From: a virus
DNA length: 10,132 nucleotides
Direction: 5' to 3' (one strand)
IMG/VR virus record: IMGVR_UViG_3300032053_009076
Shown here: in pieces, positions 643 through 7,977 of the stretch
Position numbering within the stretch: position 1 is the stretch's first letter
How the letters are laid out: each line of letters opens with the position of its first letter
The notes under the pieces: generated by a model
What the model was told of the DNA's origin: nothing
Database searches by the model: none
Seen by the model: the letters and a program-made list of their open reading frames with translations, nothing else
Position numbers and translations under genes: made by a program

Positions 643-1272
643 ATGCCAAACGATGTAAGTAAGAAAGATGTTTTGAATGCTGTACGTGGTGCTACGGAAG
701 CGATGTCTGCAACAGCGTTTAGTAAGATCCTGGGATTCTCCAAAAAGAATGCACGTGTTGCTGATCTTTTGGAAGAATTGACTTCTGATGACCAAATCGC
801 CTGTGATGATTCCGGTGGATTTGTAAAGTATTCCTCAAAGACTGTAGCAAAGAAAGGTGCGCCTTCGAAGGAATCGTCTTCGAAGGATTCAACTCCGAAA
901 AATGAATCCGACAAAGTCAAGGTGGAAGTCCTTGAAGGATTTGATCCTGAATCTGTTCGTATTCCGGTCGACTTGCACGGATACAAAATTGAAGACAAGA
1001 AAAATGGTTTCCAGGTTCGTGTTCCGAATGGCAGAGAGTATTTTGTCAGTCGTCAGCAAAGAATTCTGGTTATCAATATGGACAAGAAGATTCTGGTTGA
1101 ACAACCGGAAGACGTTTTGTTTGCGATCGATGACTTTTGCCGCAAAGGCGGTATTACCAACTACATCCTCAAGGACTTGTCGGTTGGACGTGCCGTATTG
1201 CCGCAGAATGTGGATAAGTCACCTGTGATAATCTTTGTCCAGGTTGAACGCCACAACAAAGCTGGTTTCTAA
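643..1272 (+). CDS. 209-aa hypothetical protein. N-terminal ~60 aa look like a winged helix-turn-helix. A Lys/Ser/Glu-rich linker follows, then a ~110-aa C-terminal domain of unknown fold.
   Basis: ATG at 643 preceded by 'ataggag' (SD) at about -14. The segment 'SATAFSKILGFSKKNARVADLLEELTSDDQI…GGFVKY' has a helix-turn-helix plus wing pattern. Low-complexity linker 'KKGAPSKESSSKDSTPKNESDK'. Confidence 0.6.
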   Translation: MPNDVSKKDVLNAVRGATEAMSATAFSKILGFSKKNARVADLLEELTSDDQIACDDSGGFVKYSSKTVAKKGAPSKESSSKDSTPKNESDKVKVEVLEGFDPESVRIPVDLHGYKIEDKKNGFQVRVPNGREYFVSRQQRILVINMDKKILVEQPEDVLFAIDDFCRKGGITNYILKDLSVGRAVLPQNVDKSPVIIFVQVERHNKAGF

Positions 1273-1291
1273 TACGGTTCTCCTTCCGGGT

Positions 1292-1331
1292 GGGTGGGAG
1301 TTTTGTTTCTACGGGAACTTAACTCCCACCC
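1292..1331 (+). terminator. GC-rich stem-loop with an 11-bp perfect stem (gggtgggagtt / aactcccaccc) and an 18-nt loop, sitting between two genes. No downstream U-tract, so it may be a processing or stability element rather than a classic intrinsic terminator.
   Basis: Read directly: 1292-1302 is the reverse complement of 1321-1331. Confidence 0.4.
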
Positions 1332-1356
1332 TAAAATCACAATTAGGAGACAAGAC

Positions 1357-2910
1357 ATGACTAGACGTACTACTCGTATACCTGTACCTGTGTCTGCGTT
1401 TGACGGGGAATATTCAGATATAGTAGTTGAAGTCGAACCTGAACACATAGTAGAATTAAATGAGATAGAAGAAGGAGATGCTGTAGAACAAGAAGAATTG
1501 ATTTCAATTCGCCCAATACCTGTAGATCCAAAGGATTTTATAAGACCTTCTAAGGAAGAAGAAGCAGCGAGAGCAGCACAAGAATTGGAACGTAATGGTT
1601 GGAAAAGCTCTGTTGCCGTAACCAATTTATTGAATACAGTTGTTCAGGAGAGCGGATTTGGAGCAAGTGATTTTGGGTTTCGTGAAGATTTAGATAAAAC
1701 AGAACGAGATCTTCAATACAATATGACAAACGGAACTGAATTTTCTGAACATGAATTGTATCCGACCTATAAAGATCTACATGGAATTCATCTCTACAAC
1801 TTTGATCCTTATCTAAAAATTGATCTCAAAGCAGAAGATCTAACCCCTGGTATTTCAGAAGCCTGCAAGAAATGTTATTTGAGAGATCTCGAAAATCGAG
1901 TAAGCATGCAGCATGTGTTTGCTGTAATGACAGTAGGTCATTCTAATTTGGTTTATTGCATTGTTGCCAGAAATGGAAAACCTTATTATATCACACAAGT
2001 GCTTCGTGCTTATTGGGCTGGATCTCAAAGTAGAGAAAAGACCAAAAAACTAATTGAAACCCCTTTAGATTTTACCTTTGAACAAAAGAAAAGATATAAT
2101 GGCGGGGATAATAAAGGTTTAGCTCGAGATCTATTAACGACAGCGATAACCAAATTGATTCGGACGAGTCGTAATTTGAACAATGAAGATGTTAAACATT
2201 TGATCAGCAAACTGAATGAAATGCTTACATCTCTGTTTACTTCTGATCGTGATAGTTATTCTTCCGCCGAGCCAAGAAATTTAACTATTTTACATTATTC
2301 TTTACTAATGAATTGCAGTAGTATATACAGAAAAGCAATTATGACCTTGATTCAAAAGAAAAATCAAGGGCAGAAAGAAGCGTTCAGAAGGGGAATGAAT
2401 GTTGGAATGCTGTTGTTTTCTGAATTGCAAAAAATAGGTTATCATTATGATAATACTTCTCGTAAATGGGTAAAAGAAGTTCAGTTAATCCCGTCAATGT
2501 GTTACAAATCAAATCAACTTTGGAAAATCAAACCTAACAAGCAGAAGTATAAATTGACAAAACTTTGGATTAGTCCTGAAGACTTTTCTGCAAATTCTTA
2601 TTCAGAGTTTCATATGACTGCTGAAGGAAATCATCCTAATGTAAATAGTAGTGGCGGAGTTTGTATTGGTGGTGATTTAAGTTCTAGATGGCAAAGGATT
2701 ATGGAACAAGATACAGCCTCTGGTGGAACAACCTTAAAGGATGCTGTTGCTGATTTCCTGATGGATGTTGAAGAATCTTTGGAAATACCCAATTTTGATT
2801 CTTCTTTTCAACAAATGGATGATTTTGCTGGTTCTACGGAATCAGCAGTATTGGATTTAACAGAGAAAAGAAAAGGTGCACCTCAGCGTAAATGGAGAGA
2901 ATTGGAATGA
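1357..2910 (+). CDS. 517-aa protein with a C-terminal UBC/E2-like ubiquitin-conjugating domain. The N-terminal ~350 aa are acidic and of unknown function.
   Basis: ATG at 1357 with 'aggaga' SD 8 nt upstream; the ORF-track start at 1294 is a GTG inside the hairpin and is unlikely. Near the C-terminus, 'EFHMTAEGNHPNVNSSGGVCIGGDLSSRW' matches the E2 active-site signature 'HPN(I/V)…G-x-(I/V)-C-(L/I)' with the catalytic Cys. Confidence 0.7.
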   Translation: MTRRTTRIPVPVSAFDGEYSDIVVEVEPEHIVELNEIEEGDAVEQEELISIRPIPVDPKDFIRPSKEEEAARAAQELERNGWKSSVAVTNLLNTVVQESGFGASDFGFREDLDKTERDLQYNMTNGTEFSEHELYPTYKDLHGIHLYNFDPYLKIDLKAEDLTPGISEACKKCYLRDLENRVSMQHVFAVMTVGHSNLVYCIVARNGKPYYITQVLRAYWAGSQSREKTKKLIETPLDFTFEQKKRYNGGDNKGLARDLLTTAITKLIRTSRNLNNEDVKHLISKLNEMLTSLFTSDRDSYSSAEPRNLTILHYSLLMNCSSIYRKAIMTLIQKKNQGQKEAFRRGMNVGMLLFSELQKIGYHYDNTSRKWVKEVQLIPSMCYKSNQLWKIKPNKQKYKLTKLWISPEDFSANSYSEFHMTAEGNHPNVNSSGGVCIGGDLSSRWQRIMEQDTASGGTTLKDAVADFLMDVEESLEIPNFDSSFQQMDDFAGSTESAVLDLTEKRKGAPQRKWRELE

Positions 2911-7445: not shown

Positions 7446-7458
7446 CTAAGACAATGGT

Positions 7459-7488
7459 GTAGGGGAGTCTATTCGTAGACTCCCCTAC
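7459..7488 (+). terminator. Perfect 13-bp GC-rich hairpin with a UUCG tetraloop (gtaggggagtcta-ttcg-tagactcccctac), immediately 3' of the MVP-like gene. No trailing U-run.
   Basis: Read directly; 7459-7471 is the reverse complement of 7476-7488. Lies between the stop at 7445 and the SD 'ggagg' at 7501. Confidence 0.5.
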
Positions 7489-7511
7489 TCCAACAACATA
7501 GGAGGACAAAA

Positions 7512-7748
7512 ATGAAAGATCTAGTAATTACGATGCCTATGAGTTCGGTCATATTGCAAATACTTCGAAAGATTGAAGCATCAGCAGAACAAGCGTCGAC
7601 AGGAAAAGTTCCAATAGATGATACTTATACAGTAAACTTAACTAGATTTGATATAGGTACAGTCGGACAATGTATCAAATCTCTAGAAGAGCTTGAAAGA
7701 GAAAAGACAAGAAATGGAAAAGGTCTTTCTGAGAATTCAAATGAGTAG
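7512..7748 (+). CDS. 78-aa hypothetical protein.
   Basis: ATG at 7512 with a strong 'ggagg' SD at -7. No motif recognised. Confidence 0.55.
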   Translation: MKDLVITMPMSSVILQILRKIEASAEQASTGKVPIDDTYTVNLTRFDIGTVGQCIKSLEELEREKTRNGKGLSENSNE

Positions 7749-7977
7749 AGCAATATATGTGTTATCAATACCTAAATTTGTTTGTACAAATGATGTTTTG
7801 CCATTTGTAGAGCAATGGAAAAAAGACTATACTTCTGAATTTGGCCCTTTAATTGTCCTTGTGGATGGTATGCATCTCATTCGTTTGGATAAAGAAGAAT
7901 TAAAGATATGCAAGGATAAAGAAGAACTCCTTGAACTTATTAAGGAAAAAGAAATTGCATCGATGCCCGTAGGATAA
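7741..7977 (+). CDS. ~78-aa hypothetical protein (alternative starts TTG 7693 or ATG 7714). Predicted beta-alpha-beta pattern. Ends in '…MPVG' with a terminal Gly.
   Basis: ATG at 7741 overlaps the upstream stop (ATGAGTAG). The protein 'MSRAIYVLSIP…GPLIVLVDGMHLIRLD…IASMPVG' ends in Gly. Confidence 0.45.
   Translation: MSRAIYVLSIPKFVCTNDVLPFVEQWKKDYTSEFGPLIVLVDGMHLIRLDKEELKICKDKEELLELIKEKEIASMPVG

Follow-up and report, generated by a model that had tools for sequence, protein, structure and literature searches.

We analyzed a 10,132-nucleotide stretch of viral DNA (IMG/VR virus record IMGVR_UViG_3300032053_009076; referred to here as the window), and the results indicated that four genes of this uncultured, phage-like viral contig very probably form a ubiquitin-like conjugation cassette. 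The cassette comprises genes for the precursor of a ubiquitin-like protein (Ubl), an E2, an E1, and a JAB/JAMM metalloprotease (JAB), and the modifier is very probably the 209-amino-acid (aa) protein encoded at 643-1272. All of the long open reading frames (ORFs) of the window were on the + strand. The original prediction, which was made from the DNA sequence, had recognized the three enzymes, stated that no canonical Ubl gene was evident, and named three candidates for the modifier: (a) the approximately 110-aa C-terminal domain of the 643-1272 protein, in which a JAB trim could expose Ala-Gly; (b) the N-terminal approximately 350 aa of the E2 protein, described as acidic; and (c) a small ORF at 7741-7977. 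The three features were present at the positions described, and the enzymes proved to be real, based on a Pfam ThiF match (E 1.6e-12), a JAB motif that was invariant in five orthologues, and an invariant E2 HPN...C motif. The statement about the Ubl was true of annotation libraries, as Pfam, PADLOC, PHROGs, and NCBIfam had no match to the 209-aa protein; these libraries also had no match to the E2, the JAB, or the two 78-aa ORFs of the window. The family, tail, fold, and synteny data presented here pointed to candidate (a), for which the size of ~110 aa proposed for the C-terminal domain was also borne out, and the "missing" modifier of the E2/E1/JAB cluster is very probably the 209-residue protein.

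The Ubl precursor gene (643-1272, +) encodes a protein that ends in VERHNKAGF. As judged by its predicted structure, a winged-helix domain (residues 1-70; 643-852, +) is followed by a disordered linker (residues 71-100) and then by a three-stranded beta-meander plus beta-grasp (approximately residues 101-208), with Phe209 trailing. The beta-grasp (ubiquitin-fold) core corresponded to residues 137-208 (1051-1266, +) and had the order beta-beta-alpha-beta-beta-3_10-beta. The full-length AlphaFold2 model, which was built on the family alignment, was confident (predicted local distance difference test score [pLDDT] of 90) and ended in the free tail H-N-K-A-G-F. When this model was used in Foldseek searches, winged-helix matches were mixed with matches to ubiquitin, SUMO1, FAT10, and ISG15, and the E-values were weak (0.03-0.1). 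Because the matches were mixed and weak, residues 100-209 were modelled alone, which yielded a pLDDT of 95 and a predicted template modeling score of 0.85. Thus, structure prediction combined with Foldseek, which had been proposed as a check of candidate (a), revealed the beta-grasp fold that is expected of ubiquitin-like modifiers.

When 1.84 billion representatives were searched exhaustively with phmmer, 84 relatives of the Ubl were identified, most of which were 185-235 aa long; the family was counted as at least 84 clusters at 50% identity (P0022-P0105). The alignments reached query residue 207 or 208 and ended a few residues short of the subject's end. Conservation within the family was highest at the C terminus, in the motif [R/K]-H-N-K-A-[G/A], after which came 0-5 variable residues. 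In the family alignment, N205 and K206 were at least 90% conserved and A207 was invariant. The tail pattern plus 0-5 residues formed the end of 66 of the 84 family members, and a few members had 15-41 trailing residues. In the window, the N-K-A-G tail is encoded at 1255-1266 (+), with the Gly208 codon at 1264-1266 and the Phe209 codon at 1267-1269. As judged by these sequences, a conserved motif followed by 0-5 variable residues looks like the end of a protease-trimmed Ubl, and the JAB cleavage site was predicted to follow Gly208. Pre-processing of a short-tailed Ubl by a JAB has a precedent in Type II Bil, in which E. aridi BilA is cut after Gly97 and Ala98 is removed (PMC10557695). The family showed a conserved small C-terminal residue on a flexible tail, either exposed or with a cleavable extension, as is expected of a modifier. 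The N-K-A-A and N-K-A-G members differed at their ends: 19 of the 25 N-K-A-A members stopped at the second Ala, and one extra residue was present in 22 of the 43 N-K-A-G members. Two N-terminal winged-helix domains were observed in several family members.

Nucleotide data were also available for the tail. Contigs L007-L012, which were reached via E1 orthologues at 45-46% identity, begin within the 3' end of a Ubl orthologue. These 3' ends read ...NPCIIFVQVERHNKAGF in L008-L012 and ...NPCIIFVQVERHNKAGLTV in L007, and the corresponding tails (...NKAGF and ...NKAGLTV, respectively) were identical through Gly and different beyond it (F versus LTV). Because third-codon positions differed between contigs, the tail appeared to be conserved as protein. 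A tblastn search of GenBank phages with the Ubl and a megablast search with the whole window yielded no match. When a degenerate DNA pattern for I-F-x4-R-H-N-K-A-G was used, 28 stretches were found in species-representative genomes, where the estimated chance number was approximately 26 and none of the stretches encoded a family member; the same pattern found 29 stretches in metagenome contigs, and 5 of these were real. Independent Logan assemblies broke in or at the 3' end of the Ubl gene (the starts of L007-L012 and the end of L017), likely because co-occurring strains share the conserved Ubl stretch, so that the assembly graph branches.

The gene order Ubl, E2, E1, JAB recurred in uncultured viral contigs that represent at least seven diverged lineages, and the modifier was thus genetically linked to an E1 and also to an E2, as known ubiquitin-like modifiers are. 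All four cassette genes were present in the window and L001 (a 15.8-kb ENA contig that encodes the exact E2 protein and extends 4.9 kb upstream of the window), in L008, L018/L019, L067, and L076, and in L020, whose Ubl ends in HNKAA plus 14 residues. L007 carried the 3' end of the Ubl gene followed by E2, E1, and JAB, and the cassette was partial in L013, L016, and L074. The ORF located 3' of the Ubl gene in L016, which runs off the contig, resembled the N terminus of the L020 E2 by eye. In L020, the most distant lineage, only the four cassette genes remained together.

The upstream part of L001 contained an SbcC-like ATPase gene, an 84-aa ORF ending in APSA, a 77-aa ORF ending in GVG, and the full gene for a 324-aa protein (p324; L001 4533-5507), the 3' part of which occupies 78-593 (+) of the window. 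In four lineages (L001, L019, L067, and L076), the p324 gene immediately preceded the Ubl gene; the protein had no match in Pfam, NCBIfam, or the PDB and could be an accessory protein or a conjugation target. When L001 was compared to L019, the identities were 40% for SbcC, 38% for p324, 37% for the Ubl, 33% for the E2, 41% for the E1, and 41% for the JAB. Since the cassette had diverged about as much as the flanking SbcC and p324 genes, it seemed to have diverged together with the backbone. This pattern in the sequences suggests that the cassette would be an inherited gene set serving the virus and not a mobile bacterial defense island. The original prediction had allowed for a modifier encoded outside the window, but the only small ORFs in the 4.9 kb upstream were the 84-aa and 77-aa ORFs, and no conserved terminal Gly was found in the small ORFs of this region, which refuted the idea. 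The 77-aa ORF was considered as a modifier and rejected, as its L019 orthologue ends in QKWAK.

Downstream of the JAB gene, the window carries a major-vault-protein homologue of 858 aa (4869-7445, +; Pfam MVP_shoulder E 9e-28, Vault_3 E 1e-10), a 78-aa ORF (7512-7748, +), the 78-aa ORF of candidate (c) (7741-7977, +), a gene for a ribbon-helix-helix (RHH; CopG-type) protein (8020-8175, +), and a GIY-YIG (LEM-3-like) nuclease gene (8111-8914, +). These five genes were found only in L001 and its sister contig L006, and the insertion was missing from L007, L008, L013, L018/L019, L020, L067, and L076. Placed between JAB and Gat-QueC, the vault gene is an insertion specific to this lineage, and it lies outside the conserved cassette. 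Candidate (c) belongs to this block. Its product is Ubl-sized and has a terminal Gly (...ASMPVG), but it was absent from all other cassette lineages, had no relative in viral contigs, and matched the Ubl family with an hhalign probability of only 2.7%. In addition, the ORF was not preceded by a Shine-Dalgarno sequence, and the C-terminal third of the protein looked helical by eye, whereas the tails of Ubls come after a beta-strand. Candidate (c) was therefore dismissed as the modifier, a role for which it has almost no likelihood.

The same block bears on the idea that the system has no dedicated Ubl and that, as in type II CBASS, the C terminus of a non-Ubl protein such as the vault protein is conjugated. 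PADLOC matched the E1 only to CBASS E1-E2 (Cap2) models (best E 6e-13, to the E1 domain), and the Ubl was recognized by no library. However, in every lineage the first cassette gene encoded a beta-grasp protein whose terminal A-G/A was conserved, no CD-NTase was present, and the vault protein is lineage specific and ends in KKKDK. Thus, the fold and synteny results contradicted this idea, and we consider it very improbable. A link between the vault protein and the cassette was also rejected on other grounds: vault homologues at 40-42% identity were found in the huge-phage genomes LR756501 (735 kb) and LR756500 (462 kb), and these genes had no Ubl, E1, E2, or JAB gene within 9 kb. Phage vault proteins have already been reported (bioRxiv 10.1101/2023.11.10.566534).

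The E2 gene (1357-2910, +) encodes a protein of 517 aa. We assigned its start to ATG 1357, for which there is a ribosome-binding site (AGGAGA) and which was also chosen by gene callers; GTG 1294 was rejected as a start because it lies within a strong intergenic hairpin (see below). The protein consists of an acidic N terminus (residues 1-75) that was variable in length and sequence, a conserved region (approximately residues 76-330), and a C-terminal UBC-like core. H426, P427, N428 (HPN, 2632-2640), and C436 (codon 2662-2664) were invariant among orthologues, and the HPN was located ten residues ahead of the Cys. When the E2 profile was searched against the PDB, all 60 matches listed were to UBC active sites, and they were weak (best E-value of 0.078). 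The L008 orthologue had a subthreshold match to UQ_con. A word-indexed homologue search with the E2 found only the E2 itself, and use of the E2 alignment added one weak match (P0106).

The description of the N-terminal approximately 350 aa of the E2 as acidic and unexplained held in part. Approximately 330 residues had no library match, but only the first ~75 were strongly acidic (isoelectric point of 4.3, compared to 5.4 for residues 1-330). That these ~330 residues are the modifier of the system or its main target, as candidate (b) would have it in the first case, seems unlikely. The region matched no library and residues 76-330 were conserved among orthologues; in addition, E2 self-modification is known, with BubB K358 serving as a site of BubA attachment in vitro (PMC11601596). 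Nevertheless, the region runs on into the E2 core, and because its C terminus is internal, it cannot be adenylated, which makes a role as the modifier impossible. Its hhalign probability against the Ubl family was 0.2%, and the first ~75 residues varied in length and sequence. It is possible that the region is a substrate adaptor or selector, or a site of self-modification, and either role is compatible with the 209-aa protein being the modifier.

The E1 gene (2907-3938, +) encodes a minimal E1 of 343 aa with one ThiF-type adenylation domain, and the E2 stop codon and the E1 start overlap (ATGA). The orthologues were 250-354 aa long and likewise had a single adenylation domain. Among 18 sequences, the GxGGxG, NLNRT, and DCRD motifs were invariant, as were Y209, P213, and S214 in the segment that we take to be the crossover loop. 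The only invariant Cys was the one in DCRD, and the putative loop had no conserved Cys. When the E1 profile was searched against the PDB, PaaA, MccB, TcdA, ThiF, and UBA5 were the best matches, ahead of Cap2 and BubCD. No match was obtained when viral contigs were searched with only the E1 protein. The C-terminal part of the E1 (3750-3935, residues ~285-343) was an acidic extension ending in the short motif I-x-Q-I-P-V ... I-x-Q-I, which was common to the close orthologues P0003-P0005. In this respect, the extension is reminiscent of the peptides at the C terminus of UBA5 that bind its partners. Another ThiF-like paralogue, which was shorter (180-201 aa), was observed a few kb downstream of the cassette in L020 (15765-16307), L067 (8286-8888), and L076 (9750-10355), and none was seen in the examined parts of L001, L006, L007, and L008. 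This paralogue kept DCRD and lacked the NLNR arginine-finger motif, and it might be an inactive partner of the E1.

The JAB gene (3997-4851, +) encodes a metalloprotease of 284 aa. The motif E...HxHx7SxxD, which was invariant in five orthologues, corresponds to E64 (4186-4188) and H111-x-H113-x7-S121-xx-D124 (4327-4368). Four JAB orthologues gave subthreshold Prok-JAB matches (E 0.0012-0.23). In the case of the PDB, phmmer searches of its sequences with the E2 and the JAB yielded nothing useful, and the JAB profile had no match.

The nature of the E1 and of the neighboring genes raised another explanation, namely, a ThiS/MoaD-type carrier pathway, or one for C-terminal activation, in which the E1 and the 209-aa protein would serve the adjacent Gat-QueC (7-deazaguanine) genes and not protein conjugation. 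The E1 is minimal and ThiF/MoeB-like, and its best PDB matches and putative loop are as described above. Of the seven loci compared, six had Gat-QueC directly or almost directly 3' of JAB, as did L013 (the loci with this arrangement were L007, L008, L013, L018/L019, L067, and L076). JAB proteases also occur in the sulfur-carrier pathways CysO/Mec+ and QbsE/QbsD. In contrast, an E2 with an invariant HPN...Cys was present in every lineage, and carrier pathways have no E2; the four cassette genes of L020 were together without Gat-QueC; and the modifier has a winged helix and a long linker, whereas carriers are ~70-90 aa. ThiS/MoaD and ThiF/MoeB pairs also carry out no conjugation, their carriers have no N-terminal domain, and no thiamine or molybdopterin genes were found in the window with Pfam. 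This explanation was judged to be unlikely, and conjugation of the 209-aa Ubl is the interpretation that we prefer.

We propose the following mechanism for the cassette. The JAB would cut off Phe209 and expose Ala207-Gly208, and the minimal ThiF-type E1, probably as a homodimer, would then adenylate Gly208. The Ubl would move to Cys436 of the HPN-type E2, either straight from the adenylate or via an oxyester on E1 Tyr209 or Ser214; these two routes are proposed because the putative crossover loop has no conserved cysteine. The E2 would then put the Ubl on target lysines, with its conserved ~330-residue N-terminal region probably picking the target, and the JAB may also be able to reverse the modification. 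Because the Ubl carries a winged helix on a flexible linker, conjugation would attach a winged helix to the target.

Several observations weighed against this interpretation. Each step of the pathway, from processing through adenylation and thioester formation to conjugation, is inferred. Approximately 30 of the 84 Ubl family members stop exactly at G or A and have no tail, and therefore pre-processing would not be universal; moreover, about one-third of the members with a recognizable tail end in Ala-Ala and not Ala-Gly. The E2 and the JAB were assigned from motifs and subthreshold profile matches. The E1 presumably lacks the crossover-loop cysteine used by canonical E1s, the loop having been placed by comparison with MoeB and not by structural alignment, and its best PDB sequence matches (PaaA, MccB, TcdA, and ThiF) are non-conjugating adenylating enzymes. 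A viral origin of the cassette was concluded from gene content and from the class that IMG/VR gives to related contigs, and the loci examined showed neither a capsid gene nor a terminase gene.

When compared to known systems, the cassette would function like Bil, yet it belongs to none of Bil, Bub, and CBASS. It resembles Bil in having a Ubl with a short removable tail, plus an E2, an E1, and a JAB (PMC10557695, PMC11601603), and in having these as separate co-oriented genes of one operon. The order in Bil is Ubl, E2, JAB, E1 (PMC11601603), whereas that of the cassette is Ubl, E2, E1, JAB. We set the cassette outside Bil because two defining Bil features were not found. Specifically, the Bil E1 has inactive and active domains and a cysteine-bearing helical insertion, whereas the cassette E1 has one domain, and the Bil E2 lacks the classical His and has Cys...His or CEHH (PMC1779556, PMC10557695), whereas the cassette E2 has HPN...Cys. 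BilD was not among the 60 PDB matches listed for the E1 profile. Bil is found in bacterial defense islands, and the cassette was found on viral contigs among replication and transcription genes.

The likeness to Bub ("6E/DUF6527") lies in the minimal ThiF/UBA5-like E1 with an invariant Tyr and, in the putative crossover loop, no conserved cysteine, in Ubls of varied architecture, and in the JAB protease. In the cassette, Y209 was invariant and there was no conserved Cys among the 18 E1 sequences, with the loop presumed from a comparison with MoeB. The crossover-loop Tyr of the Bub E1 (Y370) is needed for conjugation (PMC11601596). BubCD was a weak match of the E1 profile (E 6e-7). However, the Bub E2 has Ser/His and oxyester chemistry, whereas the cassette E2 has Cys and HPN. 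Bub also has a fused Ubl-E2 and JAB-E1, or an E2-E1, together with a DUF6527 serine protease (BubE), whereas the cassette proteins are separate and had no DUF6527 match in library scans.

Type II CBASS Cap2/Cap3 shares E1, E2, and JAB chemistry on a C-terminal Gly or Ala, but in Cap2 the E2 and the E1 are fused and the protein conjugated is a CD-NTase, whereas the cassette has separate genes and a dedicated beta-grasp Ubl. No CD-NTase or effector was found among the Pfam and PADLOC matches. Compared to eukaryotic SUMO/Smt3 and ubiquitin, the Ubl showed identities of 6-11%, had the tail N-K-A-G and not GG, and was fused to a winged helix. The cassette also differs from the eukaryotic systems in its single-domain E1 with no conserved cysteine in the putative crossover loop, and no RING or HECT E3 was found. 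The lambda-like TAPI (Ubl) and TAPK (JAB) proteins are a phage-encoded Ubl/JAB pairing (PMC1779556), but they have no E1 or E2, are encoded in a tail gene cluster, and have the Ubl at the N terminus of a larger protein. No description of the cassette was found in full-text literature searches, whose journal coverage is incomplete.

The spacer between the Ubl and E2 genes contained a G+C-rich hairpin (1289-1331, +; -36 kcal/mol, z -4.8). Hairpins of other sequence were found at the same position in L007 (~82-113, z -3.7) and L009 (~91-120, z -6.0), and in the window the hairpin was not followed by a clear T-run. The hairpin may be an attenuator or an RNA-stability element, and as an attenuator it may set a high ratio of Ubl to enzymes. 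Farther downstream, the RHH gene overlaps the start of the GIY-YIG gene, and the two probably came in together with the vault insertion as a mobile homing-endonuclease unit. The Gat-QueC fusion was located downstream of the window's 8111-8914 gene (L001 13771-15474; L006 10659 onward; L007 region 6771-12530). Gat-QueC is linked to 7-deazaguanine DNA modification in phages. In L006, an RNA polymerase large-subunit gene followed Gat-QueC, and unsplit RNA polymerase genes (Rpb1-like, ~910 aa; Rpb2-like, >1000 aa) were observed a few kb beyond Gat-QueC. Such unsplit genes seem unusual for phages. Related contigs of 33.7 and 92 kb were assigned to the viral class in IMG/VR.

Complete prokaryotic ubiquitin-like conjugation systems (Bil, Bub, and CBASS Cap2/Cap3) have so far been described as bacterial anti-phage or stress systems. 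Because the cassette appears to have been passed down in a phage clade along with that clade's genes for replication and transcription, it is probably on the virus side and modifies host or phage proteins for the benefit of the phage. Its modifier represents a new family of at least 84 clusters that was not seen by Pfam, NCBIfam, PHROGs, or PADLOC. The pairing of a classical HPN-Cys E2 with a minimal E1 whose putative crossover loop has no conserved Cys also provides a testable case of E1-to-E2 transfer of a Ubl without an E1 thioester. Since K206 immediately precedes the terminal Ala-Gly, modified lysines should still bear these two residues after trypsin digestion (an Ala-Gly remnant of +128.06 Da, calculated), and this remnant would permit target discovery by mass spectrometry.

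More tentatively, it is quite possible that a large uncultured phage clade carries a complete ubiquitin-like pathway as inherited backbone genes, one that combines a eukaryote-type HPN-Cys E2, a minimal Tyr-bearing E1 without a crossover Cys, and a modifier that attaches a winged helix, a combination that is absent from each of the systems compared here. If so, the E1 Tyr would imply an oxyester-to-thioester relay or a direct attack of the E2 on the adenylate. The cassette would then represent an offensive or self-regulating form of ubiquitin-like conjugation encoded by prokaryotic viruses, the mirror image of host Bil defense, and it would be a non-eukaryotic source of classical HPN E2s.

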